Source: an uncultured bacterium
GTDB taxonomy: Bacteria; UBP14; UBA6098
DNA: 64,000 nucleotides
Reading direction: 5' to 3'
Assembly (NCBI GenBank): GCA_964606695.1
Contig: CAZSHG010000004.1
Span: 97,725-161,724 of the forward strand
Shown: piece after piece, positions 35,601-62,528 of the stretch
Layout of the letters: each line of letters begins with the position of its first letter
Numbering within the stretch: position 1 is the stretch's first letter
Translations under genes and position numbers: made by a program
Notes under the pieces: model-generated
Database searches by the model: none
What the model was told of the DNA's origin: nothing
Seen by the model: only the letters and a program-made list of their open reading frames with translations

Positions 35601-38600
35601 ATCGGCCGGATGCACCTGGAAATAAACCTCGGTGCCGTCCGATGCCGGACTACCCTCCGTATCGTAAACGTCGCACGTGAGGACAGATTGCGACATACCG
35701 TCAGCCGTTACTACTACCGGATCGGCCGTCATCAGGAGATACCCGACGTCGCTTTGCCGTATGGTTATCGGTGTAATCTCGAATGCGTCTCCGCTACTCG
35801 CCCATACACGGGCAGTTCCGGGATCGGTTCCCGCGGTAAGCGTGGTGAAAGCCTCTCCGACGGAATTCGTCATCGTAGAGGTCGGGTAAATTGACCCGAG
35901 ATCGGTGCCGAAAGAAACGTTATGCCCGGACATAAGTGGATTATTGAAATCGTCGTATAACGTAGCCGTGAGGCCGGTATTATCCCGTCCGTTCGCCGCG
36001 ATTACGTCTGTATCCGGGATAAAGGTGATATATGAAAGATCACCCGGAAGAATCTGGACGAGCACCGAATCGCGGACGGAATCCACCGCCGCGCCTACTG
36101 CGCCTTTAATCCAGACCCTGCCTCTGATAGTCTTCACGCGGAACGTTGTATTTGCTTCGCCACTCTCTGTGTATCCGACTTCTGGAATCAAGTTTCCGAA
36201 AGTATCCGCTGGCGTGGGCGGAGATGTAAAACCGTCGGGAATCATCGAGAAATCGACACGGGTTCTATCGCTCATCGGATTTCCGAGAGTATCATATACA
36301 TTGGCTTGAACGGCCGTTTGCGAGAACCCATCCGCCTGTAGAATCGGGTTTTCGACTGTAATCGCGATATCATTCACCGCGGAATCGCTACGGGTGAACT
36401 CGACGAAGGTATCACCGCGCGCGTCGCCCGCCCTTGCGGTTACCCTGGCGACACCCACGTTATAAGTGCTCATCAGGTCGAAAATCACCATGCCGCGCGA
36501 ATTCGTTTCGTCCGAAGTCCTCGAAAGGATGCCCATACTGGCCTCGAAATCGACCTCGGTGCCGGCGGTCATAGCGTTGTAATATCTATCGTAAACATAT
36601 ACACTACAGGTCGCCACCGAGAAACTATCCGCGGGAATAACCGCAGGCGTTGGCCAGATGTCTATAATATGCGGATCGCCCGGGATAAGCTCGCACCACG
36701 TCGTATCGGCGATTGTATCGTTGCCTATATAAACCTCGGCGACGATATCGCATACACCCGCAGTAGTATCCGCACTAAATTCGGTTACGAATTCGCCGCT
36801 GTCGGTATAAACGGTCGCGGGAGAAATAAATCCGTAATTCGTGCCTGCGCTATCCGGTATCGGATAGAGGTGCACAGGTGTCATATACATAATAGGATTA
36901 CCGATAGAATCACGAACCACACCGCTAATCGTAGCGGTTGAATGCCTGTCCGCCGGGATTATATCCGGTTCGATGGACACGAAAACGTCGCCGATACCAA
37001 AGGGCACGAAATCGATATGTCCGATACCAATAGCTCCCTCGCAGGTTGCCGTAATCACGGCGGTTCCCGGAGTTGTGCCGCTTCTGAGCAGAACGGTCAC
37101 TACTCCTGTGCTATCGATCAGAGTATCGGTAACCGTAACGCCCAGCGTATCTATTGTTCCCAGATTCGATTCGAATATGACAATCTTCCCGTTTTTGACA
37201 CGATTGCCCTGGACATCGCGAACTATCGCAGTTACAGAGCATGTGTCCATTCCATCGGCGATAAGACTCAATTTGGATGGGGTTACCTCGATAACATGTG
37301 GCGGACCAGGAACGAAATTAATAAGGGTCGTATCCGCGACAGCCATGCTGTCCGTCGGATCCCAGGGATCTCCGACGTATGCGATTATCGTATCCGGCTC
37401 GAGATTCGATCGAGACGGGCTTCTGAGAGTAACCACACCCTCGCCCATCGAACTGTATCCCACTCCCGGGAATATTGTTCCGCCCGATGAATAGAAATAA
37501 ATTGGTGTTGAATCCGAGACCGCCGTTCCTGAATCATTAAGCGCGTAAGCATGAACGAGACACGTGTTTAGACCGTTGGCCGTCATAGAAAGGCTGTCAG
37601 CGAATACGTCGATTTCTGCAACTTCGAGAGGCCTGAGTTCTATAAGTCCTGCACCGGTGGGCCCGCCCGAAACGTCCGCACTGATAACGGCTATTCCGGT
37701 AGATACTCCGGCCCTGAACGTAACGACGCTCGGAGCATCGTTATCTGTATAAACATAGGGCGGTATAACAGATCCCAGACTGGTGCTTGGACCGACCGTT
37801 ATATCTACTCTCGTCCCAGCCTCCACCAGGTTATCGTATTCATCCATGACTTTGATTGTGCATGCAGAGGCGCTGACGCCATCCGCTGTAAGAATCGGAT
37901 ACTCCGGGATAACCTCGACGTGATGCGGTGGTCCCGGCACGAACCAGACGTTGATTGTATCGCTGAGTGTCGTATCGATTCTTGCGGAAACCCATGCGGT
38001 TCCTGTGCTCGGTTCGGAATATAGAGATACTACGGCGTTTCCATCCGTAGTAGTTTCCAGTGTATCGATAACGCCGAAATCGGCCCCGGTGGAATCCACG
38101 GAATGGAACACGACTATCTGGCCGTCGCTGACGGGCTGGCCGAGTTCGTTGAGAACCCTCGCGGTAATAACCGAATAACTTTCACCGTCGGCGGCTATCT
38201 TGCGCGGACTTGCCCGTAAACTTAGATACGCCGGAGGTGAAATTCCTATATTTACGGTAACCACGGCATGTATTCCCTCGGCGGTAATATCCACTCTGGC
38301 AATTGTAGGAACACTTGTCGCAGTCAACACGGCGGTAACTTCGCCGCGCGAATTTGTATATCCATAAACTGGGCTTATATTTGCACCGGTCGCCGAAAAA
38401 TCTACTCGAACGCCTGAACCGACGGGATTATCATATCTGTCATACAGAATCGCATGGACAATAGTAAAGTCTTCGCCGTTGGCCACAAGAGCTGAATCTT
38501 CTGCCCAGGCATCGATACTGTCAACCGGGCCAGGCACCATATCTATAAATATGCCTCCGCAGGTAGTATCCACGGAATCGTGGGTGCAGGCTGTAAACCA

Positions 38601-41600
38601 CACCCTTCCCGTCTGCGTCGCGCTCCTCACCTGAACCGCGGCTTCTCCGGCGACAGTAAATCCCATAGTAGGCGACAGCATAGCCATAGTTGTATCCGAG
38701 GGCGATCCGGCAATCGTATCGATACTGAAATATACCGGCGTGCCGTCGGAAACGGGCATACCTACACTATCTGAAACAAACGCGCGCAGGAAGGTGGTGG
38801 ACATAGCGTCCGCGACGAGGGAACTGGTATCGGAAGTTAGAGTAACATAACTCGTCGCCGAATTTTCCAATACAATATAAGCTTCTCCGGTAGCGTCCTC
38901 GGCGTGAGCGCGTATTCGCGCTTCTCCGGGACGCCTTCCCGCCATAAATATTATATCGGCGTGACCACTGGAATTAGTCGTCTCATGGTCAGGATCGAGA
39001 TATCCCCTGTTAGCGTCGAAAGTTAGATCGATACCTGCACCAACGGGATTGGCGAATCTATCGAATACTTCGACATGGATATTCGTCGTAGAGAAACTAT
39101 CCGCGGGAAGAACGGAATCTTCCGGTTCTACCAGAATGCTATCGGGCGGACCGGGAAGTAATTCTACCATTACGCTTTCAACTACACCTCCGCCGGCATC
39201 TCCGACAATATAGGCAAGGCCCACATTGCGATTTGCAGTAAACACTGCCTCGAAATAACCGCTATCTGTATGGGCAGTCATCGGAGAGACTGAACCGTAA
39301 GGTCCTAACGAATCCGTCGTAACACTCAATAAAACCGGACTTCCATCGGAAATGGGATTCCCAATTGAATTGGTTACACGCCCCCAAACTCGCGCGGTAT
39401 CGCGTCCATCGGCTATAACTTCATTAGGATCGATATAGAGATACATGAACGCGGCGTTTGTATTCGTGAAATTCACTGTAGTCTGCCCAATAGCGGTTCC
39501 GGAAGTTGCCCAAATCACCGCTGTTCCGGGGGTAATACCGGCATACAGGAAAACCGTAGCTTCTCCAAGTGTATTAGTGTATGCGAGTGTATCGATGGTG
39601 CCGAGAGTAGTGGTAAAGGTAATTGGAACTCCGGCGTTTACCGTATTACCATTAATATCATAGGCCGTAACCAGTATCTGTGTGAATGTATCGCCGTTCG
39701 CAGGTATAGTCGTTGGAATAGCATCAATATCAATCGAAGCTGGAGGTCCCGGGATGAAATCGACGGTCGTTGTTCCAAGAACACTATCGCCTGCGTCCCC
39801 GGTGATAGTCGCTGTTCCTACGGTTGTTGCGCTTCTGAGAGTCGTTACTGCCTCTCCATCTATCGTATAAGCTATACCGGGGAATATAAATCCCAGATCG
39901 GTGGTAAACCTTATCGGCGTATTATCGGGAACGGCGACCATATCCGAATCCTGAACGACCGCATGTATAATCGTCGAACTGAGACCGTCCGCGTTCAATT
40001 GAGCTGAATCTGACATCAGGAATATATACGCCGCGACCAGTTCAGTGAAAGTAAGTTCAGCGTAATCAACATAAGAACCGCTCAGAATACTCGCCATAAC
40101 CGTAGTTGCACCGACCTCGTCAGAATACAGTTCCACCGAAATCTGGCCAAGACTATCCGTATTGCCTGTCGTATAAATGAAGGTTCCCAATGGGGTTGCG
40201 GCAAAGGTTACTGTAACTCTAGGGACAGGATTACCGTATTCGTCATAAACCGTTGCGGTTGCTGTAGCTCTTGAGAAACCGTCCGCAGGCACACTGTCGG
40301 GTGATACTTCGATATCGATTCCCGCCGGTTCTCCGGGTATAAACGATACAAGAGCGCTATCCTCAAGACCATATATACCACCAAAGACATGGGCATCTGC
40401 TGAAATAGTAGGTGCAACCCAATTCACATTTATCATTCCGCTTGTAGTAAAGGCTACATCCGGAATATCTCCAACCGGGCTTCCGTCGAGAACATTCTCG
40501 GTTCTAAAACTAACAATCGTGCCGTCTGCCACAGGATTGCCTGTTGAATCATAAGCCGAAGCCGTAACCACAGAGTAACTCGAACCGTCGGCCTGCACAC
40601 GGTTAGGTGAAGCTGTTACATTGATAAAGGAAGCGATAGGCGGTATCTGCTCGACATCGAACAATTGAGTAGCAGTAATCTGGTTACGGTCATAAGTTGG
40701 ATAATACGGTAAATCCCATTCGCCATAATCATCCGACACATGATTACCGTTACCGAAGAAAGCCTCCATTATTGCGGTTCCGACGTCGTTCGAGGCTCTG
40801 TATGTAGCCATAAATTGACCCTGGCTATCCACAATCGCAGGAGATGTAATGAAACCGGGGGCAATAGGTATATCTTCGTTTGCTTTTAATAAAATCGGCG
40901 TTCCTGGACGTGCGAAGTTTAGATAAACATCTTGAACCGTAGCATAAACGCGACTTCTGGATACGCCGTCTGCAAAGATAGTATCCGGGACAATGGAATC
41001 TATGTAGATATAGACCGGGCAGTCGGCAATGTAATGAACGAATATCGTATCCGCGATAGCTCCGCTATCCGCCGAAGCAATAATCGTATCTACAAGGGCA
41101 ACGGTTGTCGCGAACAATTGGGAAGTCGTGTATCCGTCTGCAGTAAACCCGAAGGGCGGATCTATTTCGCCACGCGCGGCTGTAAAATCGACTCGCGTAT
41201 CATCCGATATAGGTCTTCCACCTGCATCGAAAACGCTTGCACGTAAGCTCGTTGATGTTCCTACCGTTATCTTAATACTATCGGACGTAAGGACTATATA
41301 TGCCGGGCCCGTCGGGACGATTTCAATTGGCACCGTAGCGACAGCGTCGTCTATTGAAGCTCTAATAACAACACGGCCAATTACGGTTCCGCTGGTGAAC
41401 GTAGTCCGTGCGAAACCCGAGTCCGTCGCCATCGGCGAAATAATGCTACCCATAGTATCGGGGATAGCGTCGAATACTACGTCTCTGCCATCCTCGACGC
41501 GGTTGCCATAGGCATCGAAACATTCCGCGGTAATATCGGAAATCTCGCCGCCGACGGATAGCAGGGTATCCGGGTCGGCATCGAGTAAAATTGTCTCCAC

Positions 41601-44600
41601 AGGCCCCGGTTTGATACGAACGGTTTGCGTATCGGCAATACCTCCAATAGAAGCGATAACGACACACGTTCCGGCTAAAGTATCCGGCCGGAATTCAGCT
41701 ACCGCTTCGCCGCCCGCGGTTGATGGCCTCGGTGGGACTATATCCGCCATTCCTTCGGGTTCCACCCGCATCGAAACGAGTGTGCCGTCGCTTATCGGTC
41801 CTCCAGAACTATCATAGACTGTAGCCGTAACGTTCATCGTTCTGCCAATATGTATCGAAGTGCTGTCTATCGAGAGGAATATATCCTCTACAGGTAACGA
41901 GCCAACATAAACCACTTTCGTATCCGTTACTGCTCCTACAGTTGCAGTTACAAGACCGCTACCTTCCATAGTGTCCGAGCGGAATTCTGCCAGCGCCATG
42001 CCCGTATCCGTATCCACCGTAAACGGGACAACTCTTCCGATTTCCGGCGGGATTACGTCGAAATACACCGGCGTTCCGTCGCTAATTGGATATCCGGCGC
42101 TATCGAAGACTTCGGCTTTAACTCCCATCACACTCGACGGGGCTATACGAATGCTGTCGAGTGTCAATAGCACTGTCCCCGCGTGGCCTGCACCTATATA
42201 TACGTATTTCGAATCGGATACCGCGCCGGAAGTCGCTATTATCAGAGCCTCGCCGGATAAAGTCCCGGCCTCGAAACTCGCGGTGGCGATACCGTCCATA
42301 GTGGTCGCATGTTCGGGAGCTATGCTTCCCATTTCATCCGGTTCGACGCTGAATTCGACTATCGAACCGTCGCTGATATGCGATCCGGAAGTATCGAACA
42401 CCTCCGCCTGAATATTCATCGAACCTTCGATAGGCAGGTGTGTGCTGTCGGCCGTGAGATAGAGGAACCCCGATAAGGAACTTGTAAGCCAGATGCCTAT
42501 ATTATTGAAAACCGTCGGGTAAACGGATAATTTTGCTACAACCACTGCTTCTCCGGTAACAAAACGGCTTCGGAAAGTAGTTGTGCATGCGCTTTCAATA
42601 TTCGTGTTAATAGTCGGGCGGAGGATATCGCCCATTCCCTCGCTACCAGCTTCCAATTCAAATTCGACCGTGATTCCATCTCCAGCAGGGTTGCCATGTG
42701 CGTCTGTAACCAGAGCGGCTATTCTACTCGTGCTTGTGCTGTCGGCGGGTATCGTATCCGGTTCCGCCGAAAGATGTATCATTCGCGGAACATCGGGTTT
42801 GAAGGCTATCATCATACTGTCCGTAACATCTTCGGTGTCGCTTATAGCCACCGTCGCCTTGACCCATGTAGTGCCTATAGTAGTTGGAGCAATGAGATAT
42901 ATACGTGCGAAACCGCTTTCCGTAGTAGTGCTGAAAGTGTCGTCCATTGGTGAAAGGAACTCGCCCGGGACAAGCCCGCCATCGGTCGATCGAGGCGATA
43001 TCCTGCCGCGCGGCGACGTAGGTCTTTCAACGTCGTGAGAAATTCTGTTTTCCGCGTCGATCTTATTATCGGGTATATCGGGAGCCGGTCTGAATCTTGA
43101 TGAATATGGGAGGAACGTTCCCAATTCCGTCGAGAAAGTAACTTCGATTCCGTCCGAGCAGGGATTATCGTGCTCGTCCACGACGTAAACACTTATAAGG
43201 ACGCTATCCGCGCCGTTAGCCGTGGCCGAATCGAAATCGGCGAGCATACGTAGATCGCGTGGATAGACCGGGTAGAAATAAATATCGCCTATCCCCGCCA
43301 TCGCACCGGCGGAAGTTGCGGTTATCGTATGCCAACCGGTAACGCGGGAACTTGTGAGAACGGTTTGTGCCTGCCCGGATGCGTTAGTATTGTCGGAGGG
43401 GGGATTAACCGTCCCGCCGCTACCATCGGGGGTAAAGGCAACCGACTGTCCCGCGCCAACGGGGTTATCGTAGGCGTCGTAAACATCAGCCCAAACAGTG
43501 CATGTATCCTCTTCGTCCGCGCGAATACTATCCCGACTGAAGGCAACCTCTATTCTATCAGGTGTTCCCGAGAGGAAGGGAATATAAATCGTATCCGCCG
43601 CCGTTATCACTGTATCGGCAATTAGCGTATCATAAGTTTGATACCACGCGGCTACCATACAAGAGTCGGCCACATAACCGCTTGTCAACAGGACACTGCA
43701 GAAACCGTCGTCGGTGGTTGCTTCTCGATAATCTACCGTGTAAATATTTCTGGTTCTGTTGGTCAGTAAGGGCGTCGCCCTATCGAAACCGACTCCGGAA
43801 AGCGAGCCGAGATCGGTATAGAATTTGATCCGCACGCCGTCGGTAACCGGAGTATAGGCCGAGTCCAGAACCTCTGCGGTGATAGTCGATTGGCTGAGAC
43901 CGTCGGCGGGTAAGCTTGTCGGCGAGGCATTCAACTGTATATGGCGCGGTATAGTATTGGCTAAAAGGACTTCAGTATAACCCGATGCGCTCTGGCACGT
44001 GGCGGTGATTCTCGCATAGCCGGATATTGTGCCGCTGGTAAGCATGGTTGTTGCTTTTCCAAGTGAATCGGTAAGCGAACTGGAGGGGAAAAGGTCGCCC
44101 TTGTCCGTTGAGAAGCTTACGGTTAGTCCCGAGGAAACCGGGTTGCCATAGTCATCGAAAACCTGCGCAGTAATCTTTGTCGTATCAACACCGTCGGCCA
44201 TAATCTGGCTTCTTCCCGGCGTAACAACTATGCTATGCGGAGAACCGGCCACGAAAGTAACATAAGTCGTATCTGAGAGCGTATCGCTTGTTGAGAAAGC
44301 GCTGGCCGTGCATTCCACACGTCCGGCGGTAGTCGAACTCCGCAGTTTCACCCTGGCGTAACCCGATTCGGTATATGCGGTAATCGAGCTGTTGGGACTT
44401 GTATTCATTCCCAAAGTCCGATGGGTGGCTTTTCTGGAATTGACTAAATCGCCTTTGCCGGGCCTTAAGCTGGATAACGAATATTTGGAACCGGTATAGG
44501 GCAAAAGCGCGCCGTTATCGGAAGTGAAGTATATCTCGGTGCCGTCGGGGGCAGGCGCACCGGTTCCGCCGATTGTAACATAGGCGGAAAGCGTTAATTC

Positions 44601-45413
44601 AGATTCGCCGTCGGCGTCGATACTCGTAGGCGATGCCGAAAGGTCTATGAAATCTACGTCGGGGATATCGAGAACCCAAATCGTGGTTGTATCCGCGATA
44701 GAGTCCGCAGTGCCCACGACCGCCGCGGAAATAATGACTTCGCGGGAATCGTTCGGGGCGGTAAAGGTAGCCTCGACTTTTCCATCCGAACCAGTAATGG
44801 GACTCCCACCGGTGAAATCGAGGATCAGGTCGCCCATGTTCCCCTGAAGGAACTTGAAGGTAACGGTCTTATTTTGTAACGGCGTATAAAGGGAATCGAC
44901 GACTCGCGCGGTCAATAGAACCTGGCTGGTGCCGTCCGCATAAACCGTATCCGGCACCGCGGTGAGGAAAATGTATCCCGGATTGGTGAAGTTCGTGGGC
45001 AGGACGGTAATGGTTATCCGTTTAATCCTCTCCTGTTCCGCCGATACCTTTGCCGTTATCGTGATAGTATAGGTTCCGGAGCTGTCCGGCTCGGTCATAA
45101 TAGTCGTTCCCGCTATGCCTTCGTCGTTCGTAATCGGTTCTGGTGAGACAATCGAACCGCCGTTCGATGTAAACTCAACCGGAAGGTTTTTAGCTGGATT
45201 ACCAGAAGTCGCCCCTCTGACCATAACATAGATGTTGGTGAAATCGCCAGCGACAATAGTCGTCTGGTCCGCCCATATGCTGTCGATGATAAAATCCGTG
45301 TCGCCGCCCGGGTCGATATTGCCCTGTGAAGAACAACCTGAGAAGAAAACAACGCTTAGAGCGAGTATTAATACCGCCCCAAGAACGAATTTAAATCTAT
45401 TAGAGTTGGTCAT
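29607..45413 (-). CDS. Giant (5268 aa) surface lipoprotein made of about 45-50 tandem bacterial Ig-like (Big_1, intimin/invasin-type) domains. Putative adhesin.
   Basis: One uninterrupted 15.8-kb ORF. Lipoprotein signal (LILALSVVFFSGCSS). An about 95-100-aa unit with consensus ...TAxVxDxxGNPVxDGTxVxFxT... is reiterated throughout. Confidence 0.85.
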   Translation of the reverse strand: MTNSNRFKFVLGAVLILALSVVFFSGCSSQGNIDPGGDTDFIIDSIWADQTTIVAGDFTNIYVMVRGATSGNPAKNLPVEFTSNGGSIVSPEPITNDEGIAGTTIMTEPDSSGTYTITITAKVSAEQERIKRITITVLPTNFTNPGYIFLTAVPDTVYADGTSQVLLTARVVDSLYTPLQNKTVTFKFLQGNMGDLILDFTGGSPITGSDGKVEATFTAPNDSREVIISAAVVGTADSIADTTTIWVLDIPDVDFIDLSASPTSIDADGESELTLSAYVTIGGTGAPAPDGTEIYFTSDNGALLPYTGSKYSLSSLRPGKGDLVNSRKATHRTLGMNTSPNSSITAYTESGYARVKLRSSTTAGRVECTASAFSTSDTLSDTTYVTFVAGSPHSIVVTPGRSQIMADGVDTTKITAQVFDDYGNPVSSGLTVSFSTDKGDLFPSSSLTDSLGKATTMLTSGTISGYARITATCQSASGYTEVLLANTIPRHIQLNASPTSLPADGLSQSTITAEVLDSAYTPVTDGVRIKFYTDLGSLSGVGFDRATPLLTNRTRNIYTVDYREATTDDGFCSVLLTSGYVADSCMVAAWYQTYDTLIADTVITAADTIYIPFLSGTPDRIEVAFSRDSIRADEEDTCTVWADVYDAYDNPVGAGQSVAFTPDGSGGTVNPPSDNTNASGQAQTVLTSSRVTGWHTITATSAGAMAGIGDIYFYPVYPRDLRMLADFDSATANGADSVLISVYVVDEHDNPCSDGIEVTFSTELGTFLPYSSRFRPAPDIPDNKIDAENRISHDVERPTSPRGRISPRSTDGGLVPGEFLSPMDDTFSTTTESGFARIYLIAPTTIGTTWVKATVAISDTEDVTDSMMIAFKPDVPRMIHLSAEPDTIPADSTSTSRIAALVTDAHGNPAGDGITVEFELEAGSEGMGDILRPTINTNIESACTTTFRSRFVTGEAVVVAKLSVYPTVFNNIGIWLTSSLSGFLYLTADSTHLPIEGSMNIQAEVFDTSGSHISDGSIVEFSVEPDEMGSIAPEHATTMDGIATASFEAGTLSGEALIIATSGAVSDSKYVYIGAGHAGTVLLTLDSIRIAPSSVMGVKAEVFDSAGYPISDGTPVYFDVIPPEIGRVVPFTVDTDTGMALAEFRSDTMEGSGLVTATVGAVTDTKVVYVGSLPVEDIFLSIDSTSIHIGRTMNVTATVYDSSGGPISDGTLVSMRVEPEGMADIVPPRPSTAGGEAVAEFRPDTLAGTCVVIASIGGIADTQTVRIKPGPVETILLDADPDTLLSVGGEISDITAECFDAYGNRVEDGRDVVFDAIPDTMGSIISPMATDSGFARTTFTSGTVIGRVVIRASIDDAVATVPIEIVPTGPAYIVLTSDSIKITVGTSTSLRASVFDAGGRPISDDTRVDFTAARGEIDPPFGFTADGYTTSQLFATTVALVDTIIASADSGAIADTIFVHYIADCPVYIYIDSIVPDTIFADGVSRSRVYATVQDVYLNFARPGTPILLKANEDIPIAPGFITSPAIVDSQGQFMATYRASNDVGTAIMEAFFGNGNHVSDDYGEWDLPYYPTYDRNQITATQLFDVEQIPPIASFINVTASPNRVQADGSSYSVVTASAYDSTGNPVADGTIVSFRTENVLDGSPVGDIPDVAFTTSGMINVNWVAPTISADAHVFGGIYGLEDSALVSFIPGEPAGIDIEVSPDSVPADGFSRATATATVYDEYGNPVPRVTVTFAATPLGTFIYTTGNTDSLGQISVELYSDEVGATTVMASILSGSYVDYAELTFTELVAAYIFLMSDSAQLNADGLSSTIIHAVVQDSDMVAVPDNTPIRFTTDLGFIFPGIAYTIDGEAVTTLRSATTVGTATITGDAGDSVLGTTTVDFIPGPPASIDIDAIPTTIPANGDTFTQILVTAYDINGNTVNAGVPITFTTTLGTIDTLAYTNTLGEATVFLYAGITPGTAVIWATSGTAIGQTTVNFTNTNAAFMYLYIDPNEVIADGRDTARVWGRVTNSIGNPISDGSPVLLSVTTDSLGPYGSVSPMTAHTDSGYFEAVFTANRNVGLAYIVGDAGGGVVESVMVELLPGPPDSILVEPEDSVLPADSFSTTNIHVEVFDRFANPVGAGIDLTFDANRGYLDPDHETTNSSGHADIIFMAGRRPGEARIRAHAEDATGEAYIVLENSATSYVTLTSDTSSLVADAMSTTFLRAFVSDSVGMPVSDGTPVYFSIDTIAGSPSDTTMAMLSPTMGFTVAGEAAVQVRSATQTGRVWFTACTHDSVDTTCGGIFIDMVPGPVDSIDAWAEDSALVANGEDFTIVHAILYDRYDNPVGSGVRVDFSATGANISPVYGYTNSRGEVTAVLTATSVPTIARVDITAEGIHAVVTVNIGISPPAYLSLRASPRKIAADGESYSVITARVLNELGQPVSDGQIVVFHSVDSTGADFGVIDTLETTTDGNAVVSLYSEPSTGTAWVSARIDTTLSDTINVWFVPGPPHHVEVIPEYPILTADGVSASACTIKVMDEYDNLVEAGTRVDITVGPSTSLGSVIPPYVYTDNDAPSVVTFRAGVSTGIAVISADVSGGPTGAGLIELRPLEVAEIDVFADSLSMTANGLNTCLVHAYALNDSGTAVSDSTPIYFYSSGGTIFPGVGYSSMGEGVVTLRSPSRSNLEPDTIIAYVGDPWDPTDSMAVADTTLINFVPGPPHVIEVTPSKLSLIADGMDTCSVTAIVRDVQGNRVKNGKIVIFESNLGTIDTLGVTVTDTLIDSTGVVTVLLRSGTTPGTAVITATCEGAIGIGHIDFVPFGIGDVFVSIEPDIIPADRHSTATISGVVRDSIGNPIMYMTPVHLYPIPDSAGTNYGFISPATVYTDSGEFVTEFSADTTAGVCDIVAEVYIGNDTIADTTWCELIPGDPHIIDIWPTPAVIPADSFSVATCSVYVYDRYYNAMTAGTEVDFEASMGILSRTSDETNSRGMVIFDLMSTYNVGVARVTARAGDARGDTFVEFTRSDSAVNDIAITVENPILQADGFSQTAVQANVYDTLGNPMSDRTRVDFSMIPDGFTSPPTPADTFGNLIPEVGYTESGEANTTFRVKTIRGRVWIKGAVGAAVDSVRDSVLVQILPGDLSYITFIPDTDVIAANGRDNTGLTATLYDDFNNPLMSGHNVSFGTDLGSIYPTSTMTNSVGEAFTTLTAGTDPGTARVWASSGDAFEITPITIRQSDVGYLLMTADPVVVTADGMSQSVLTCDVYDTEGSPASDGTEVYFQVHPADTGGTVVSPKLTLGGSCVTSFTSSTDVGYGEAWIVGKVYTPGDSIMDSVRVFIHPGSAATIEIWGDSTHVPQDTLNADGWDHMYVYARVNDQYGNHLRAGQEVTFTTSLGTITSSAITDTSGIARVVLTSGLNPGDAVIMAHSGSAVGYNQINFRPTTVSNIIVYSDSSSLTADGVSSTSVRAHVYSPGGYLVSDETLVDFVVPSGLAYAEPNEAYTDSGIAITTIRADTIAASSVQILAIADDDTGTVNIRLDPGVANRIIAYAQDSVLYADGASVTAVECTVYDRFSNPVRPGTPVSFETTLGSVIPTGYTNSAGYVFTRLTAGTEVGDALITIRCQEAIQFVDVRLDSLIADEIVMTINPAILQGDGTSTANVKAWVYSSGLYVSDGTRVSFTQDTSGSFIRGIITPRIVFTDAGTVHVELTAPIGVGTGRIIANVGATVADTFEVTYQAGEPAIIIFDTMYTTTLPADGSGYPVVVHVYDEYTNPVDIGTAVTFETSRGEIISPVAVDSTSGSARTLVSSTEAGPAFITARSEGAVASKPYEFTTLDADLISIVANPVRLTADGVSTSNVLATVFNIDSLGRTRPVSDNTPVTFQNIGSGILSPTTCYTEGGKVTTALLSSVIAGYDTVIASVSATLADTAVVEFTPGPPAIVSFIPPIRDMYADGADTQLVTVEITDAFGNTVSPGLSVNFGITIGSITSPSATDTLGRASAVVVSSADFGTASISATCGGAAGYATLNFIPLIADTLYLVVNPPTLTANGSDNADLTAVVFDTSGYPVSDGTIVKFSTSDGIVSPVIGYTAGGVATSTLIASTTPSDSVFVVASAGTTAVDTTMARFIPGPPEIMYIEASDTVIVANGADTTSIMVYVQDIFGNSVGSGVAVNFSASLGTIPSTAYTDTLGRARARLLSGTSAGFSNITASAGATGANILIEFAPTDVGDVLLTVSPSRLTADGTSTAGVTCYVLDTVGVPVSDGTPVRFSELNLGSISPLFATTVDGVVYGTVTSYTSVGWDTLVATSGDSTDTVSIEFVPGDPYLIRMWPADSSLLANETDTTRIYGVVYDEEGNPVNAGQIVNLSINPSDYGTITPVTATNDTGAFDIRFRAGRYAGMAVITANCGSATGITQVELMPTTVADIGLSIDTRYMDADGISSTNVRAFVTDSTGFEIADGTIVRFTQLVPPGNVEALIVPNRQDTEGGQATVELYAPTIAGSTYVYAYIPMGSDTVCSDTQSVYFSPGEAAVVRFDTSFVQLIADGADTLSDSAWVEDAFGNPIPDQAVNFTLEFGYVSPPIAVTDGNGGVRFRITSPDSVGSTYLMATSGGATGYLPIDFVPDSVDTIILSITPRGLPADGSSTADVRALVLDSDGNPIANGVIVRFTADLGLITPFDYLSGGIAEALLVAADTSGVDTIKATCLGETSRVAVTYEAGSPADIELSVVPDTATVGSTTSSVVSGMVTDGVGNPVAAGTYVYLTVDSIGTGSIADPIVAVDDSGYFSTFYTPGLKAGMTGVTATVDEITAHANILLKAGPPHTMDIDVSRDFIYIRGVGEIDQAVIEAVIFDQYDNPVRDSCAVIFRIVDYPIGGSINPELIPGGGLVSDTVYTMAGRASVAARSGDRSGSMVIEAVAYIPAGGSIDSRAPRITIGSGLPYHVSVSVGDCNVPGFDTDGVANSVMAIVTDVYDNPVAPGTAVWFTALQGAVTTSSVTDDSGFAFATWYSSSPRDSGIVTISAETRDTSGTRADTTFFYNSGPADSISISISPYMVYADATGTAEIQVSIWDVNRRPVVNGTSVNVIADWGTASSPVTSINECYGSYAISNYTGANLFRDDYANQDTARIVDVTANIGGVTANNVVYLKHDLPNSSHSSITAPSEVPYNTSYLVSTRIVDQWDNPIAGESVTLSAASASGGGNAVTGATGETSWTLTAPDSTAPSTDVLMVTINSTGAVINTSVTYVSRRRRPEYDPEVSDSATVPERAVIRRNEFYIREED

Positions 45414-54905: not shown

Positions 54906-55619
54906 ATGCGTAATAAATTCAAATCGCTACATGCAGTCCTGAATACGCTCGGTTCGATTCTCGTCGCGTTGAGCTGGGTAATACTCATATCTACCGTTAT
55001 AGTTTTATTTCACAATGAGACTGTATTATATCATTATAGAACTTTGATAGCGTTCATATTTTCCGCGGCGATAGCACTTATTATCGGATTGCTTTTGAAG
55101 ACTTTTTCCCGCAAAGTGGGATTAAACCTCGTTCACGCGATGTTGGTTTGCAGTATCAGCTGGCTGGTTTGTTCTATAATCGGTGCCGTTCCTGTTATGA
55201 TTATCGTCTGTCTCGCGACGGCCCGAAAGCGCCTTTCGATAACGTCGAAATGCTTTACTGGCGGGGTTTGTAGAAAGGCTTGTGAAGGCTAGTTAATGCC
55301 AACCGACGGCTACGCTCTCAGCCATCAGGGCGTTCTGAAACAACTGGAGTATAATTTTTGGGCGATTCTCTTTCAGGTCATGTCGATTCTCACCACAACC
55401 GGTTTCGGGACATCGGATATTGGAGGACCTTTTTTCGGTTATGTCGCGAAGCAATTGTTTCTTATAATGATGGTAATCGGAGGTTGTATCGGTTCCACCG
55501 GCGGCGGGATAAAGGTCTTGCGGGTGGCCATTCTTATCCGCATTTTAGAGCGCGATTTCGTGCCGGGTTCCGAGCTTATGGAAAGTTTCAAGCTGATTAT
55601 GGAGAGGGAGTCGGGTTGA
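54906..55619 (+). pseudogene. TrkH/KtrB-family K+ transporter remnant. Two collinear ORFs are separated by a single in-frame TAG at 55293-55295, and the total length is less than half of a normal TrkH.
   Basis: The second ORF carries the diagnostic TrkH segment SILTTTGFGTSD ... IGGCIGSTGGGIKVLRV. The first ORF is in the same reading frame (54906 plus 3x129 gives 55293). Confidence 0.45.
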
Positions 55620-55679
55620 GATAGCACAATCCGTGCTTGACATTTGGGGTGTTTATAAATAATTTACAAGGTTGTATTT

Positions 55680-57275: not shown

Positions 57276-57560
57276 ATGATAACATGGGCATTAATAATAT
57301 TTATTCTCGACGCGATACTTTACTATAGCCTCGTTTCCGGGAAATGTGGGCAACAGTGTTCTCTGTTTTTTTGTATCGGTATCGCGGTTGCGGCCCTCGG
57401 TATCCTCATCAGGACTTTTGTCAAGATTCGCGCGGGACGTTTCGAGCAAATGGATAAAGAATTACGGCGGATGAAAGATGATAACAAAGAGTTATTGGAA
57501 AGGATCTCGAACATCCGCGAACAACAGATAATAGACCGCACCGACAAAGACCTTATCTAA
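57276..57560 (+). CDS. Hypothetical small membrane protein with a C-terminal coiled-coil (94 aa).
   Basis: Two N-terminal TM segments followed by a charged helical tail (MDKELRRMKDDNKELLERISNIREQQIIDR). Confidence 0.35.
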   Translation: MITWALIIFILDAILYYSLVSGKCGQQCSLFFCIGIAVAALGILIRTFVKIRAGRFEQMDKELRRMKDDNKELLERISNIREQQIIDRTDKDLI

Positions 57561-57606: not shown

Positions 57607-58008
57607 CTATGCAAAGATACTGTTAAGTATAGGGATCAGATCGTTAGATATTTCCCTGGAATACAATCTGACTACACTCGATGTAATTCCGGTGTCCGCT
57701 ATTGCGACAATGAACGCTTCCGGCATGATGCTATGAATATGCAGGTTTTGGTGAGTCCCCTGGTAACTTGTTGCGGCGAATTTTTTCTCTCCCAGAGCGG
57801 ACGCCAGCGCTTGAGTGCTCGATAGTCCCGCCGTAGCGAGAACCGCGAGAGAATTCACGTTAACGCCGGAGAAATCCCCGGCCTGGCTCAGGATAAAACC
57901 GCTTCGGCTGACCAGAACAACGGATTTAGCCCCGGTATCGCTCAAATATGTTACGAGCAGTTCGGTTAATTTCCTGCTGTCTTCTCCCTGAATAACTACG
58001 TTCTTCAT
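57607..58008 (-). CDS. mglB: Roadblock/LC7-domain protein, MglB-like GTPase-activating partner of MglA.
   Basis: 133 aa roadblock/LC7 fold pattern (VVLVSRSGFILSQAG ... AIADTGITSSVV). Sits 4 nt downstream of the mglA-like gene. Confidence 0.7.
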   Translation of the reverse strand: MKNVVIQGEDSRKLTELLVTYLSDTGAKSVVLVSRSGFILSQAGDFSGVNVNSLAVLATAGLSSTQALASALGEKKFAATSYQGTHQNLHIHSIMPEAFIVAIADTGITSSVVRLYSREISNDLIPILNSIFA

Positions 58009-58012
58009 AGTT

Positions 58013-58618
58013 TTAATTCCTCGGTTTGATATCCTCTAAAAGCTTCCTGACGCATATCCTGCAAACAGCGTTGAGCGTATCGAATACTTTCGTCCCGTTT
58101 ATCGCTATCGATTCGAAAACGGGAACCGGGTTTGGGACATTATTCAACAACTCATCCATGGATTCTATTTTCGATATCTGTTCAAGATCGCGTTTATTGT
58201 ATTGCAGGACGTAGGACATATCCGTAAGTAGAATCCCGAAATCCGCCAGGTTGTCTATGAGGTTTTGAAACGATTCCGCATTCGCTTTCTGTCTGTTCCA
58301 TTGGGAATCCGCTACAAAAACGACCGCATCGGCTCCCTGAAGGACGAGTCGTCTCGTTGCATTATAATGAACCTGTCCGGGGACTGTATATAACTGAAAT
58401 TTAGTTGTGAACCCGGGGATTATTTTCGATTGTATCGGAAGGAAATCGAAATAAAGCGTCCTGTCACCCTCGGTTGAAATCGATATCATTTCCGACGCTT
58501 CCTTGCAGGATATCTTCTTCCTAATATACTCCAGATTCGTGGTTTTCCCGGACATAGCCGGTCCATAATAAACGATTTTGATGCAAATCTCTTTGTCAAC
58601 TACGTTTACTTGAGCCAT
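58013..58618 (-). CDS. mglA: Ras-like small GTPase MglA.
   Basis: KIVYYGPAMSGKTTNLEYI P-loop, characteristic of MglA, with switch/G3-G5 regions. 201 aa. Confidence 0.85.
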   Translation of the reverse strand: MAQVNVVDKEICIKIVYYGPAMSGKTTNLEYIRKKISCKEASEMISISTEGDRTLYFDFLPIQSKIIPGFTTKFQLYTVPGQVHYNATRRLVLQGADAVVFVADSQWNRQKANAESFQNLIDNLADFGILLTDMSYVLQYNKRDLEQISKIESMDELLNNVPNPVPVFESIAINGTKVFDTLNAVCRICVRKLLEDIKPRN

Positions 58619-58654
58619 TTTAATCTATGTATCTTTCAAAACGCATTTAGTTTC

Positions 58655-60712
58655 CTATCCGAAGGACGGTAAATCATCGTTGCCGCTATCGATCCAGGAG
58701 GATTCCGATTCGTCTTCCCCGCCGGATTTCAACAGTGAAGGATCTACCTGTGGCGCTATATCTTCCATCGGTAGCTGGACCTTGAGTTCCATTATGTTCG
58801 GCCCCTGTTGCGCGGCGATGAAATTCACGAGTTCTATCGGCACCATATTATATATGAAATCTACAGTAACTTCGACTTTCCCGCTAGGTAACTGGTCGAT
58901 TATCATCCTCAGGGGGATTTTGAGATTATGGTCGGAACCTTTTCTAATCAATTTATCGAGAACGGCACCGCTCTCCGATCCCGCATTGTAACTGATTATC
59001 TTCCTCACGGATATTTCTATCTTGTCGGCCGGGTCGCTTGCGAGATTCATAGCCTCGGCCGGTGGCATTTCGGGTTGTTTTTCCTCTTCCTTTTTTTCCG
59101 ACTCTTCCATGGCCTTCCTGAGTTCGTCCTCGGTGAATTCCCCCTTTTCTTTCTTTTCTTTGCCCGGAGCTTTTTCTTCAGGCTTTCCAAGCCCGTCCAG
59201 TTCGCTCACTATCTCCGCGATTCCTTCTTCATCGATCTTCTTCCTCCCGGGCTTTTTGCCTTCTTCTTCGTCGCCCGCCGGTTCCGCTTTCTCTTCGATT
59301 TCGACGCCGAGGTCTTCGAGAAGTTCACCTAAATCAGGGTCGAGGTCGTCCGGCAAATCTTCATAATCTTCAATAAGATCTTCCTTGAAATCAGAGACTG
59401 TTTCGATTTCAGGTTCCTCCCTTTTCTTTCTATGCGGTTTGTTTATCTCGGCAGTCTCTTCGGTTTCTTTTTCCTCCTCTTTCTGTTCAACCTTTTCCGG
59501 TGGAATTTTCTCCTCCGCTTCTTCGGGCTCGGGTTGAGGTTCTTCTTCTACTTTTTTCTCTTCCGGTTGTTCGGGTTTTTCCGTTTCATCCCCAGAAACT
59601 TTTTCGATAACTGGAGTTTCAGGTTTCTCCTCGGTTTCCTCTATTCCGGGTTCAATCAGTTTTTCTATATCCGCCATTCCACCGATATCTTCGATTTCCG
59701 GCTCGAGTTCTTCTTCGACAATGGGTTCTTCGACAACCGATTCCCCGGTTTCCATTGTCTCCATGGTTTCATGTCCTTGTCCTCGTTCGGTAACGATATC
59801 CTCGACGAGTTCTTCCGCAGATTCCGTAATTTCTTCGATTTCGGGTTTTTCTACAATCGGTTTCGGGATGATTTTCGGCTCGATTTCTTCAGTGGCTGTT
59901 TCCTTTTCCTCTTCAACAATATCTAACTCCGGCTCTTCGCTTTCGCCGGCCTCTTCACTTTCTTCGGTCTGCGATTTACTAATTTTGAGAAGTTCATCTA
60001 AGGTTTCGCCGCCTTTCTCCTCCAATCCCTCCGCTAAACCCGCATTAATAGAAGTAAGCCCTCCCGTATCGATTTCCGATTCTTCCCCTGAAACGCCTTC
60101 TTCCACTTCACTCAGGAATTTATCGAAAAGTCCGATATCCTCGATATTAGGTTCGCTACTCCACAGGTCTGTTTCGTCTTCTTCGGTCTCGGATATGGCT
60201 TCGTGGGTAAAGAATTCGGCGGGAGGCGGCGATTCTACAGTTCTTTTAGGGGATTCAGTTTCTTCCTCTTCTTTTTCGAGTAATTTTTTTTCTTCCTCGT
60301 GCCCCAGCGAGTGGATGAGGATAGGAAAAGCGAGAGCCGGGGAGAGAATCACCTGGAATACGAAAGTTGGCGTGTAGTCAAAAAGAGCGTTACGGAAAGA
60401 TTCGAACAGAAAAAGTTCGGAACGGTTGAAGAAAAAGAAAAATATAAGGCCGTTGCCGAGAGCGAGTAATATCCAGAAAATTAAGATAACTATCAATCCT
60501 TTAAACCAGAGAAACGGCTCGAAACGATGATTCGAATAGAGAAAAAGCGCCAGGATAAAGACCGCTACGGCAAACGCTACTTTGATTTGCCACGGAATAA
60601 ACAGTTCCGGGATGCTATCTCGCAAATCGTAGAGCAACGAACTCACGCCCACTCCGGCCACGAATAGGACGAGAATAAGTATTATTGCCGATTTTGTCGA
60701 TATCTCTCTCAT
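58655..60712 (-). CDS. Membrane-anchored, extremely acidic low-complexity protein (685 aa). It has about 4 N-terminal TM helices, then an about 350-aa Glu/Lys/Pro-rich disordered region, then a conserved-looking C-terminal domain of about 150 aa. Co-oriented with mglAB, 36 nt upstream.
   Basis: Direct reading of the translation. EEK/EPE/EIE-type repeats (…EEEKKLLEKEEEETESPKR…EEKPETPVIEKVSGDETEKPEQPEEKKVEEEPQPEPEEAEEK…). The opposite-strand ORFs in the track are Ser/Phe-rich artefacts of the same repeats. Confidence 0.55.
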   Translation of the reverse strand: MREISTKSAIILILVLFVAGVGVSSLLYDLRDSIPELFIPWQIKVAFAVAVFILALFLYSNHRFEPFLWFKGLIVILIFWILLALGNGLIFFFFFNRSELFLFESFRNALFDYTPTFVFQVILSPALAFPILIHSLGHEEEKKLLEKEEEETESPKRTVESPPPAEFFTHEAISETEEDETDLWSSEPNIEDIGLFDKFLSEVEEGVSGEESEIDTGGLTSINAGLAEGLEEKGGETLDELLKISKSQTEESEEAGESEEPELDIVEEEKETATEEIEPKIIPKPIVEKPEIEEITESAEELVEDIVTERGQGHETMETMETGESVVEEPIVEEELEPEIEDIGGMADIEKLIEPGIEETEEKPETPVIEKVSGDETEKPEQPEEKKVEEEPQPEPEEAEEKIPPEKVEQKEEEKETEETAEINKPHRKKREEPEIETVSDFKEDLIEDYEDLPDDLDPDLGELLEDLGVEIEEKAEPAGDEEEGKKPGRKKIDEEGIAEIVSELDGLGKPEEKAPGKEKKEKGEFTEDELRKAMEESEKKEEEKQPEMPPAEAMNLASDPADKIEISVRKIISYNAGSESGAVLDKLIRKGSDHNLKIPLRMIIDQLPSGKVEVTVDFIYNMVPIELVNFIAAQQGPNIMELKVQLPMEDIAPQVDPSLLKSGGEDESESSWIDSGNDDLPSFG

Positions 60713-61010
60713 TTAGCCTTTCTATGACAACTTATAATATTAATAAAGATATACGGGGATGTCAACGTATTTGACTTCGGGTAAGCTGAAAAATCGGGGG
60801 AAGCCTTTTTTTTTGACGCTTGAGAATGCGCCTATACGAATATTTGAAAGTGCTCGCTCATAACCAAACGATAACTGCAATATGGTCAGAATAATTTCAT
60901 GCACACGTGTTCCATTTTTATTACTAATTAAACTAAAAAAATCGATTCTTGCCTTGATTTAATAACCGCCTATCGATATTTTCCGATAAATAATCAACTG
61001 GAGGTTCCAG

Positions 61011-62528
61011 ATGAGATATCGAATTTTAGTAATACTAATCCTCGTTTTCGTTTTTATCGGTTTTGCGCAATGGACGCCGGATCCGCGTTATCACACGGTG
61101 GATGATGTTATCGACGAAGTGTTAGCGCTTGCGGATACTTTTTCCAGCTATTGCCATATCGAAACACTCGGCACCGGCCCGTGGTTCGGAAAACCAATCC
61201 TGGCAATGCGGATTTCCGAGAATCCCACGGTCGATGAAGACGAGATCACTATCGAGATCCACGGAGGGCAACACGCCGACGAACCTCAGGGGGTCGAAAC
61301 CTGTATGTGGATGATAAAGGATCTTCTTCACCGAATCGACGAGGGGGATAGCTCCGCGACATTATGGTGGCAAACCTATGAAATCTGGATAATCCCACAA
61401 GTTAACACCGACGGCAGAATTATGTGCCTGGATTCATGCTATAACGAATGGCGAAAAACCTGCAATGACCTTGATTCAAATGGCATTCTCGACGCTTACG
61501 ACGACGGGGTCGATCCAAATCGAAACTGGGATTACGAGTGGGAAGAATACACTCCCGAAGATTACGACAATACCAAAGGTCTCTTCCCGTGGAGTGAACC
61601 GTGCGTGGTAGCTATGCGAGATTTCTTTGAAAGAGAACGGCCGCTGTTTATCGTAGATCTGCATTCCCCCGATTACACGGGTGGAAATAAACTCTGGACA
61701 TGCTGGTATTTCGAGGGCGGCCCCTGGGATGCAAGTTATACTCCCGAGGGCAGTGAATCTTTTGACGAAATCCGATATTACCTTTCGCAGGCTATTCGCG
61801 ACGAGGAGGGCGATCCTTACGAAGGATTATGGGCGAACCAGAACAAACCCAAACTTCAGAACTGGTGCTATTATAACCTCGGACACTGTCCAATATTGAT
61901 CGAGATTACCAACCAGTGCTTCTGGCACGCCGACACGATCGATACTATTGCGGCGCGAGTCGGGCACGGACTTTATTATCTGATGGAACGTCCGATGGAA
62001 AGGCTTCTGGTCGTCCACGTCGTGGATACACTCGGCGAACCGGTTTTAGATGCGGGCGTAGATATAGTGGAGTTACAACACGATTATCTCCCCGTGCGGA
62101 CAGTCGATCCGGTATTCGGCACCTGCAGGAAACTTGTGCGCGATAATAGATATTATACTCTCGAAATCACCGCCCCGGGAATGCCTACCGAAGTCCACGA
62201 TTCGATATATATCCCACCGGATTCTCCTCCTTTGCATAGGACAATTATCATGGGCGACGCGTCGATAGGCGAACCGAAATTGCCCGAAAGGCTGGAAATG
62301 CGAGCCTATCCGAATCCCTTTAATTCGGCTGTTCGTATCGAACATGCCCCAGATTATGATAGCCGGCTGGATATTTACGATATTTGCGGCAATCGGATCG
62401 TGCGGTTAGATATGAGTGCCAATGGCGAGACTTTATGGCGGCCCGATCACAGCGTCAATTCGGGATTATATTTCGTTAAGATAGTCGGGTCGGACGAGGG
62501 CGCTATCAGGATGGTCTTTCTTAAATAG
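61011..62528 (+). CDS. Secreted M14 family zinc carboxypeptidase with a C-terminal T9SS-type sorting domain.
   Basis: Signal peptide. M14 zinc ligands (EIHGGQHADEPQG, that is HxxE ... H). C-terminus MRAYPNPFNSAVRIEH ... GLYFVKIVGSDEGAIRMVFLK (Por_Secre_tail-like). Confidence 0.8.
   Translation: MRYRILVILILVFVFIGFAQWTPDPRYHTVDDVIDEVLALADTFSSYCHIETLGTGPWFGKPILAMRISENPTVDEDEITIEIHGGQHADEPQGVETCMWMIKDLLHRIDEGDSSATLWWQTYEIWIIPQVNTDGRIMCLDSCYNEWRKTCNDLDSNGILDAYDDGVDPNRNWDYEWEEYTPEDYDNTKGLFPWSEPCVVAMRDFFERERPLFIVDLHSPDYTGGNKLWTCWYFEGGPWDASYTPEGSESFDEIRYYLSQAIRDEEGDPYEGLWANQNKPKLQNWCYYNLGHCPILIEITNQCFWHADTIDTIAARVGHGLYYLMERPMERLLVVHVVDTLGEPVLDAGVDIVELQHDYLPVRTVDPVFGTCRKLVRDNRYYTLEITAPGMPTEVHDSIYIPPDSPPLHRTIIMGDASIGEPKLPERLEMRAYPNPFNSAVRIEHAPDYDSRLDIYDICGNRIVRLDMSANGETLWRPDHSVNSGLYFVKIVGSDEGAIRMVFLK

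Follow-up and report, generated by a model that had tools for sequence, protein, structure and literature searches.

What is a large, strongly acidic membrane protein doing directly in front of the two genes of a bacterial polarity switch? The question is raised by a 64,000-nucleotide (nt) stretch of DNA from an uncultured bacterium of the lineage UBP14 (contig CAZSHG010000004.1, positions 97,725 to 161,724; this whole stretch is hereafter called the window), in which three genes follow each other on the minus strand. The first, here named gene X (58655..60712), encodes a membrane-anchored acidic protein of 685 amino acids (aa); the second is mglA (58013..58618), encoding a Ras-like polarity GTPase of 201 aa, recognized from its open reading frame (ORF) and from matches to the sequences of known structures; and the third is mglB (57607..58008), whose 133-aa product belongs to the Roadblock/LC7 proteins by its Pfam match and is the cognate GTPase-activating protein (GAP) of MglA. 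On the basis of gene context, we consider it probable, at roughly 60%, that X is a tether or scaffold in the cytoplasmic membrane that is dedicated to the MglA/MglB switch. In more general terms, X very probably belongs to this switch as a membrane partner that had not been described; how it acts we infer from its sequence and surroundings. The scaffold function is suggested by the strict linkage of X to mglAB, by fusions of its N-terminal domain (XN) and C-terminal domain (XC) to Roadblock domains in relatives, by the conservation of both ends and of short islands between them, by the layout of the operon and by the precedents GltJ and RomR.

Synteny of X with mglAB was followed from both sides. 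A scan anchored on MglA, with one genome per species, returned 80 loci (loci are denoted by L and a number), the best of which encodes an MglA only 59% identical to that of the window; an exact look-up of the window MglA in the contig index gave no match. Among them, L002 from an unclassified metagenome-assembled genome (MAG) carries upstream of mglA the gene of a 796-aa protein that matches both XN (E = 2e-6) and XC (E = 1e-25). When an XC profile was iterated over all ORFs of the 80 loci, it added proteins encoded directly upstream of mglA in four MAGs of the Rokubacteria/Methylomirabilota, together with proteins of L025 (unclassified MAG), L019 (Armatimonadota MAG; 1001 aa, acidic and with four membrane helices) and L042. 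As an independent test, metagenome contigs were scanned by XC patterns alone, which yielded 14 loci with XC identities to the window of 34-76%. All 14 of these, as well as two loci found via a fragment match, have mglA and then mglB immediately or ~1 kb downstream (16/16), and in three further mglA clusters at 62-63% identity an XN+XC protein (646-709 aa or truncated, without a Pfam family) is encoded directly upstream in each case (3/3). The juxtaposition of X and mglAB, on which the initial annotation had built its proposal of a polarity or gliding factor, is therefore upheld in the relatives. The genes flanking the trio change, from glycyl-tRNA synthetase in the clade of the window to genes for thioredoxin, LTD proteins and poly(A) polymerase in a different clade; it is the trio of X, mglA and mglB itself that forms the conserved unit, and not its flanks. 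In L099 and L101, a giant protein other than that of the window (see below), with 2474 to >3800 aa and faint Cohesin matches, is encoded directly upstream of the X gene.

The trio is compact, with gaps of 36 nt between X and mglA and of 4 nt between mglA and mglB, all in the same orientation, as the initial annotation had described for X and the module behind it; the length of 685 aa that it gave for X likewise agrees with the ORF. No terminator-like site was found between the three genes in a scan of the region. The neighbours at either side, an M14 peptidase gene (61011..62528) and a 94-aa ORF (57276..57560), lie on the opposite strand in divergent or convergent orientation, so that the trio stands alone. 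A promoter-like site with the pattern TTGACA-17 nt-TAATAT (60737..60765, minus strand; 10/12 matches in a consensus scan) is positioned ~25 nt upstream of the X start codon, but it is a pattern match only; the number of sites found by the scan in this region was not above that in shuffled sequence. From the order of the genes, X, mglA and mglB are presumably co-transcribed. The 36 nt between the first two genes (58619..58654) amount to 12 codons, among them a second in-frame stop, since mglA starts in the reading frame in which X stops. The exact X protein is present in the NCBI collection, where it has no name.

Judged by their protein sequences, the downstream genes are genuine mglA and mglB. 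Over its full length (residues 2-193), the window MglA matches Myxococcus xanthus MglA (6hjh, 6h17, 5ymx) with an E-value of 4e-57 and Thermus thermophilus MglA (3t12) with one of 1.5e-56. The protein has the motif YTVPGQ, with Thr for the Asp of DxxGQ and with the catalytic Gln, and the motif EGDRTLYFD with the switch-1 arginine. In its P-loop, GPAMSGKT, there is an Ala at the place where M. xanthus MglA has G21, the equivalent of Ras G12. This Ala was found in 14/97 MglA sequences of the fetched loci; 13 of these are at short-form X loci (see below) and the remaining one is at L019, which also has an XC protein. Since a G21V change in M. xanthus MglA blocks the hydrolysis stimulated by MglB (PMC2910265), the window MglA may be intrinsically less GAP-sensitive, a property that possibly co-evolved with X. 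The window MglB matches Pfam Robl_LC7 with 29.6 bits (cut-off 23) and MglB structures with E-values of ~1e-10, and it reaches only 55 bits against the NCBIfam equivalog of Thermus-type MglB, which has a cut-off of 200. Its residues equivalent to K14, R115 and K119 of the M. xanthus protein are basic as well.

X itself, with an isoelectric point of 4.18 calculated from its composition, consists of two well-conserved ends and a long acidic middle. A full-length model was calculated by AlphaFold2 with 22 family sequences, and its confidence is given here as the predicted local distance difference test (pLDDT). The four hydrophobic segments seen in the hydropathy profile all fall within aa 3-136, and the model contains helices at residues 6-32, 41-59, 66-94, 102-112 and 114-152 with pLDDT 90-97. 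Four of them correspond to the membrane helices that the initial annotation had counted, and the short one at aa 102-112 is an extra helix in the third loop. This domain, XN, comprises aa 1-152 (60257..60712, minus strand) and is matched by a family hidden Markov model (HMM) with E = 4.5e-56; in an alignment of 31 representatives, Gln and Pro residues of helix 4 are conserved. Lys and Arg occur slightly more often at the N-terminus, in loop 2 and past helix 4 than in loops 1 and 3, and because of this distribution and of the even number of helices a cytoplasmic location of both termini is weakly favoured. Together with the cytoplasmic nature of the presumed partners, this weak positive-inside bias leads us to place both ends of X in the cytoplasm, as a prediction.

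The part that follows XN is a polyanionic disordered linker of aa 153-555 (59048..60256, minus strand). Glu accounts for 31% of it and charged residues for 48%, and the net charge per residue is -0.25; over residues 141-560, Glu makes up 30.5%, Lys 9.8% and Pro 7.9% of the sequence and the net charge is -106, whereas the last 125 residues of X have an ordinary composition. In a charge-hydropathy (Uversky) plot the linker falls on the disordered side, and XN and XC both on the folded side. Nearly all of residues 157-554 have a pLDDT <50 (about 40) and no regular structure except three short helices at 461-467, 497-504 and 528-536. The initial annotation had rightly pointed to a low-complexity region rich in Glu, Lys and Pro and to its probable disorder; only the length, put there at 350 residues, is closer to 400. 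A recent origin of the acidic region by tandem repetition was considered and rejected, as just two trivial two-copy DNA repeats occur in the linker.

Comparison of X with its closest relatives shows how differently these parts evolve. Identity is 69-80% in XN and 73-77% in XC, but only ~39% in the linker, and this contrast between highly identical ends and a variable middle is also the reason why we regard X as a real gene. Across the relatives, the linker varies in length from 269 to 615 aa, while its net charge per residue is steady at -0.19 to -0.25. Because the charge density has been kept in evolution and the sequence and length have not, the linker is probably an electrostatic or entropic spacer. 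Four islands stand out from it. M1, WSSEPNIEDIGL (aa 184-195; 60128..60163, minus strand), is kept in most of the close clade, exactly in L086 and L087 and partially in L083 and L084. M2, DLPDDLDPDLGELLEDLGV (aa 452-470; 59303..59359, minus strand), is near-invariant in the four closest relatives, has a locally raised pLDDT and includes the predicted helix 461-467; its form conserved in the close clade is DLDPDLGELLEDLG. M3, IDEEGIAEIVSELDG (aa 493-507; 59192..59236, minus strand), and M4, FTEDELRKAMEESEK (aa 526-540; 59093..59137, minus strand; conserved in the close clade as FTEDELRKAMEES), were recognized by conservation and by a predicted short helix, which is acidic in M4. Thus, M2, M3 and M4 coincide with the three short helices of the model.

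XC is a folded alpha/beta domain of aa 556-665 (58718..59047, minus strand; HMM E = 4e-34), for which the model has pLDDT >90 (residues 560-665). It is composed of four strand-helix units, three of them with the motif h-x-h-P-h-x-x-h-h-x-Q-h-P, for example LKIPLRMIIDQLP and LKVQLPMEDIAPQV, and the segment PIELVNF forms its almost invariant core. When residues 548-685 were modelled alone from 24 sequences, the mean pLDDT was 83.6 and the predicted template modelling score 0.70, with the same strand-helix pattern as in the full-length model. The domain is followed by the acidic C-terminal tail EDESESSWIDSGNDDLPSFG (58658..58717, minus strand), which has a conserved Trp and a conserved Phe and is itself of low confidence (pLDDT <50 for residues 667-685). 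Past XC, an acidic-S-x-W motif is common to the short forms and to the long forms of the L002 type, and 10-17 residues beyond it there is a Phe motif, LPSFG at the very C-terminus in the clade of the window and h-x-F-[DE] in others. A distinct C-terminal domain had been proposed in the initial annotation and is indeed there, albeit with ~110 residues plus a 20-residue tail instead of 150.

Neither this domain nor XN has a counterpart in the collections that we searched. X has no Pfam or NCBIfam family, the one listed Pfam match being at noise level (E = 0.047); an XC profile found nothing among PDB sequences at E up to 10; 24 XC domains had no Pfam match in common at E up to 1; and a fold search of the PDB with the full-length model retrieved nothing beyond unspecific helical bundles for XN and no real fold match for either domain. 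PilZ, the RomR C-terminus and any other known domain were rejected as identities of XC, because it is without a match in Pfam, NCBIfam, PDB sequences and PDB folds. An unrelated well-known family, which might have cut the link to MglA, did not appear either.

How far the two domains reach was assessed exhaustively with HMMER in a set of 1.84 billion representative proteins. The family is small, as XC matched only 35 clusters (at 50% identity), window X included, at E up to 1e-3. A word-indexed protein search had returned no match with XC alone and two fragments only with a 10-sequence XC profile; since HMMER did find the family, the database of that search evidently lacks or hides it. All full-length members begin with four membrane helices and contain linkers rich in acidic residues or proline as well as 1-7 XC copies, and most of them carry an extra C-terminal module, with 250-560 residues after the last XC; these are the long forms. 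In the short-form subclade to which window X belongs (P0003-P0012), the chain ends <=30 residues past XC. All members named in their sources are called "hypothetical protein", and they come from a Zixibacteria MAG, which contains the nearest named relative of X, from an Acidobacteriota MAG and from an unclassified bacterium. We provisionally speak of an XN-XC family; window X has the four-helix domain XN and an XC with the PIELVNF-type core, and its gene lies directly upstream of mglA-mglB on the same strand. The idea of a lineage-specific factor, also put forward at the outset, had to be abandoned, as XN and XC domains are found next to mglA in Zixibacteria, Ignavibacteria, Rokubacteria/Methylomirabilota, Armatimonadota and unclassified MAGs, usually fused to Roadblock.

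The fusions connect both domains with the regulators of MglA. In mglA operons of Zixibacteria and Ignavibacteria, the XN profile matches (E = 1e-15 to 7e-4) proteins of 292-348 aa in which a short linker connects XN with a Roadblock/LC7 domain; the Pfam Robl_LC7 match of these proteins is above the cut-off in L012 (E = 3.5e-5) and weaker in L009. They are encoded in a gene cluster that runs from PATAN (DUF4388) and a 129-aa membrane protein with four helices through TPR+Roadblock, XN+Roadblock and Roadblock genes to mglA, mglB and a PilB-type ATPase (T2SSE+MshEN), which links the module to type IV pili in these organisms. This long and conserved mglA-PilB cluster is seen at L028 (6210..13795) and also in L009, L012, L013 and L021-L023, all from Zixibacteria/Ignavibacteria MAGs. 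As for XC, the L042 protein, encoded directly upstream of mglA, has two XC copies and then a region with a weak Robl_LC7 match (E = 0.0017; 18.5 bits, cut-off 23). The C-terminal module of the long forms found nothing significant among PDB sequences, but 20/24 of its weak matches were to Roadblock/LC7 proteins, LAMTOR2 or MglB, in register and with a best E-value of 0.037, which is suggestive of a Roadblock-like module.

Long-form loci are also richer in genes. L002, L094 and L096 have two additional genes between X and mglA, one for a weakly Roadblock-like protein with a membrane helix and one for a 120-aa Roadblock protein. The former, of ~200 aa, combines a single membrane helix at the N-terminus with a stretch rich in Lys and Pro and with a region that weakly resembles Roadblock (Pfam Robl_LC7 E = 0.069), and it sits between X and the 120-aa Roadblock gene at L002 (2417..3019), L001 (310..951), L094 (2655..3263) and L096 (11239..11859). 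Of the 80 MglA loci, 57 have PATAN, 53 have TPR-Roadblock, 66-69 have an extra Roadblock gene and 15 have PilB, whereas none of the four was found in the window or at any other short-form X locus; for this reason we regard the window as a stripped-down version with three genes. As its operon is without PATAN, TPR-Roadblock and extra Roadblock genes, X is probably the only scaffold encoded there. A Roadblock domain was not detected within window X, in which the chain ends 20 residues after XC.

These observations can be combined into a stepwise proposal for the action of X. The three genes, which lie in the order X, mglA, mglB, would be expressed together. XN, with its predicted helices, would anchor X in the inner membrane so that its two ends face the cytoplasm, and the polyanionic linker of ~400 residues would hold the XC end off the membrane as an electrostatic or entropic spacer, along which the short conserved acidic helices could serve as docking sites for partners. 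XC and the acidic tail with its Trp and Phe might then bind MglB, MglA or both. If so, the switch would be concentrated by X at the membrane or at a site on it, and X would thereby set where MglA-GTP can exist. The Roadblock fusions of relatives may represent the ancestral mode of docking on the MglB/MglA complex, in which case window X would have lost the module.

Several points weigh against a scaffold function. The clearest link to the switch in the relatives, the Roadblock-like module, is missing from window X, so its binding surface is a guess. Even in the long forms, the alignment of this module with MglB has a probability of 9.9% (hhalign), and no member reaches Pfam Robl_LC7. The topology of X comes from prediction with a weak positive-inside signal, all relatives of X come from uncultured organisms, and the conserved adjacency of X and mglAB would fit a downstream effector equally. 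In the latter case, XC and the tail would bind MglA-GTP only, and XN would relay the signal to a machine of the cell envelope, such as type IV pili or a gliding apparatus linked to the type IX secretion system (T9SS), in the way in which GltJ connects MglA-GTP with the Agl-Glt motor. GltJ, a membrane protein read by MglA-GTP via a disordered linker, is a precedent for such an effector, and XN is conserved beyond the need of a bare anchor, with 70-80% identity in close relatives, the Gln and Pro of helix 4 and a sequence recognizable across phyla; besides, the XN-bearing mglA cluster of the Zixibacteria/Ignavibacteria relatives ends in a PilB-type ATPase, and the organism of the window encodes T9SS substrates. 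We nevertheless consider an effector rather unlikely, given that no pilus or gliding gene was found within 10 kb of any short-form X locus or in the 64-kb window, that no motor or secretion component with similarity to XN was detected and that the fusions in the family are to Roadblock, the fold of the MglA regulators MglB and MglC, and not to components of a machine.

It is also conceivable that X shares an operon with mglAB and has no function in common with them, being a generic membrane polyanion for cation buffering, for protection from stress or desiccation or for spacing of the nucleoid. Extreme acidity, disorder and a constrained composition are typical of some stress and ion-binding proteins, and no catalytic or binding domain was recognized in X by Pfam or NCBIfam. 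Such a role appears very improbable in view of a linkage to mglAB that persists in 16/16 and 3/3 loci over lineages with XC identities of 34-77% and changing flanks, and of the fact that XN and XC are each fused to Roadblock next to mglA in other phyla; moreover, the best-conserved parts of X are the folded XN and XC and not the acidic tract. Finally, with the N- and C-termini both outside, the linker and XC might be periplasmic or exposed at the surface, and only the membrane domain would communicate with MglA/MglB. The weak positive-inside bias of a topology obtained by prediction leaves some room for this arrangement, and secreted and surface proteins are encoded in the same genome region. 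But the N-terminus does not resemble a signal peptide with a cleavage site, as the first helix stays a membrane helix from residue 6 in the model, Lys and Arg cluster at the N-terminus and past helix 4 rather than in loops 1 and 3, and the position past helix 4 is occupied in relatives by Roadblock domains, the partners of which are cytoplasmic. An outward orientation is therefore hardly credible.

Other genes of the window are described here for completeness. Convergent with mglB, the 94-aa ORF (57276..57560, plus strand) encodes membrane helices and a charged helical tail and has no Pfam or NCBIfam family; it also occurs between mglB and the glycyl-tRNA synthetase gene in the close relatives L081, L097 and L098. 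On the other side of the trio, the M14 carboxypeptidase (61011..62528, plus strand) has a T9SS C-terminal sorting domain. A giant ORF of 5268 aa (29607..45413, minus strand) contains ~27 Ig-like repeats of the Big_1/Invasin_D3 type and is presumably a surface adhesin. Further away are a SusC-like TonB-dependent receptor with a CarboxypepD_reg domain (22624..24828, plus strand) and a 959-aa N6-adenine methyltransferase of the Eco57I/MmeI type (16887..19766, plus strand), probably a type IIG restriction-modification enzyme and followed by ORFs without a family match. The carboxypeptidase and the SusC-like receptor both suggest that the organism belongs to the FCB group. At 54906..55624 (plus strand), adjacent ORFs of 128 and 107 aa and an overlapping third resemble one membrane transporter gene broken by frameshifts.

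Knowledge of MglA and MglB has been gained mostly in Myxococcus, and to some extent in Thermus and Bdellovibrio, where the accessory proteins are soluble (RomR/RomX, MglC) or bound to the motor (GltJ). Here, two uncatalogued domains, XN and XC, are tied to mglA in MAGs of several phyla and are fused to Roadblock in most lineages; in the lineage of the window, what is left is the anchor, the polyanionic tether and XC. If X is a scaffold as proposed, it would be a concrete candidate for the membrane attachment of a bacterial Ras-like switch, and the window would offer a minimal polarity module of three genes that is open to reconstitution; dozens of "hypothetical proteins" would become annotated MglA-associated proteins through two domain families. 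Should the scaffold function turn out to be wrong, the strict synteny of X and mglAB would still demand an explanation.

It remains to compare X with systems that have been described. According to the initial annotation, a membrane-anchored acidic partner of MglA is not a described component. This holds for the XN-XC family, for which we found no description in full-text searches of the literature, but not for the principle, which is known from GltJ (PMC11135422) and CvnA (PMC4316618). In a survey of prokaryotic Ras-like GTPases from 2014, the gene surroundings of groups 1, 4 and 5 of MglA are said to "vary widely", and most mglA groups had no conserved neighbour apart from PATAN proteins, which occurred occasionally (PMC4316618).

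RomR is a partner of MglA/MglB made up of modules, with an extended disordered region and a negatively charged, Glu-rich end. In X, likewise, the ends are conserved, and the linker between them evolves fast and carries acidic helical islands. RomR, in contrast, is soluble and starts with a response-regulator receiver domain, whereas X starts with four membrane helices and, up to E = 0.1, matches no receiver domain of Pfam or NCBIfam. The linker of X is several-fold more acidic than that of RomR, and no sequence similarity between the two proteins was detected. MglC, a Roadblock protein, offers a basic patch on which the Glu-rich C-terminus of RomR docks, and in MglB the conserved basic residues K14/R115/K120 form a patch that is used for an acidic partner (PMC10329633). 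The window MglB has retained this patch. The acidic disordered linker of X carries short acidic helices, but the C-terminus of the protein consists of a folded alpha/beta domain and a coil tail and not of a Glu-rich helix. With MglC and the PATAN proteins, which are encoded beside mglA/mglB in many phyla, X shares this position and no domain; the presence of PATAN adjoining mglA was noted by Wuichet and Sogaard-Andersen (PMC4316618).

GltJ is a membrane protein of the Agl-Glt gliding machinery. A motif in its disordered cytosolic linker is bound by MglA-GTP, and GltJ also recruits MglB (PMC11135422). X is likewise anchored in the membrane and has a disordered linker that is presumed to be cytosolic. 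The zinc-ribbon, the GYF domain and the periplasmic part are specific to GltJ, however, as X has neither zinc-ribbon or GYF matches in Pfam nor a Cys-rich motif, and while gltJ sits among genes of the gliding motor, X sits with mglAB. In its gene arrangement, X is similar to the conservons CvnA-CvnD of Actinomycetota, operons in which an MglA-family GTPase and an MglB-type Roadblock protein are combined with a membrane-spanning partner, the membrane kinase CvnA (PMC4316618). Unlike X, in which no kinase or other signalling domain was recognized, CvnA is histidine-kinase-like with HAMP and kinase domains.

A further parallel is the eukaryotic Ragulator, in which LAMTOR1/p18, a membrane-anchored and largely unstructured tether, holds Roadblock-fold dimers that in turn hold small GTPases on the membrane. 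In the long-form relatives of X, one and the same chain similarly runs from the membrane anchor through a disordered linker to Roadblock-like domains, with a Ras-like GTPase and a Roadblock GAP encoded next to them. The differences are that LAMTOR1 is lipid-anchored instead of helical and is not homologous to X, and that window X is without a Roadblock domain. Overall, X would act like RomR, GltJ, CvnA or the Ragulator tether but belongs to none of them, and no homology with any of them was detected. As a speculation to which we give only low credence, the XN-XC family could be a bacterial counterpart of the Ragulator principle, in which a tether made of a polyanionic arm and the previously unseen fold XC positions Roadblock-GTPase complexes. 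In the lineage of the window, this tether would then replace the whole set of RomR, MglC and PATAN and thereby form a minimal polarity module of three proteins, and in bacteria the membrane tethering of such switches would have an earlier origin and a wider distribution than the soluble model from Myxococcus implies.

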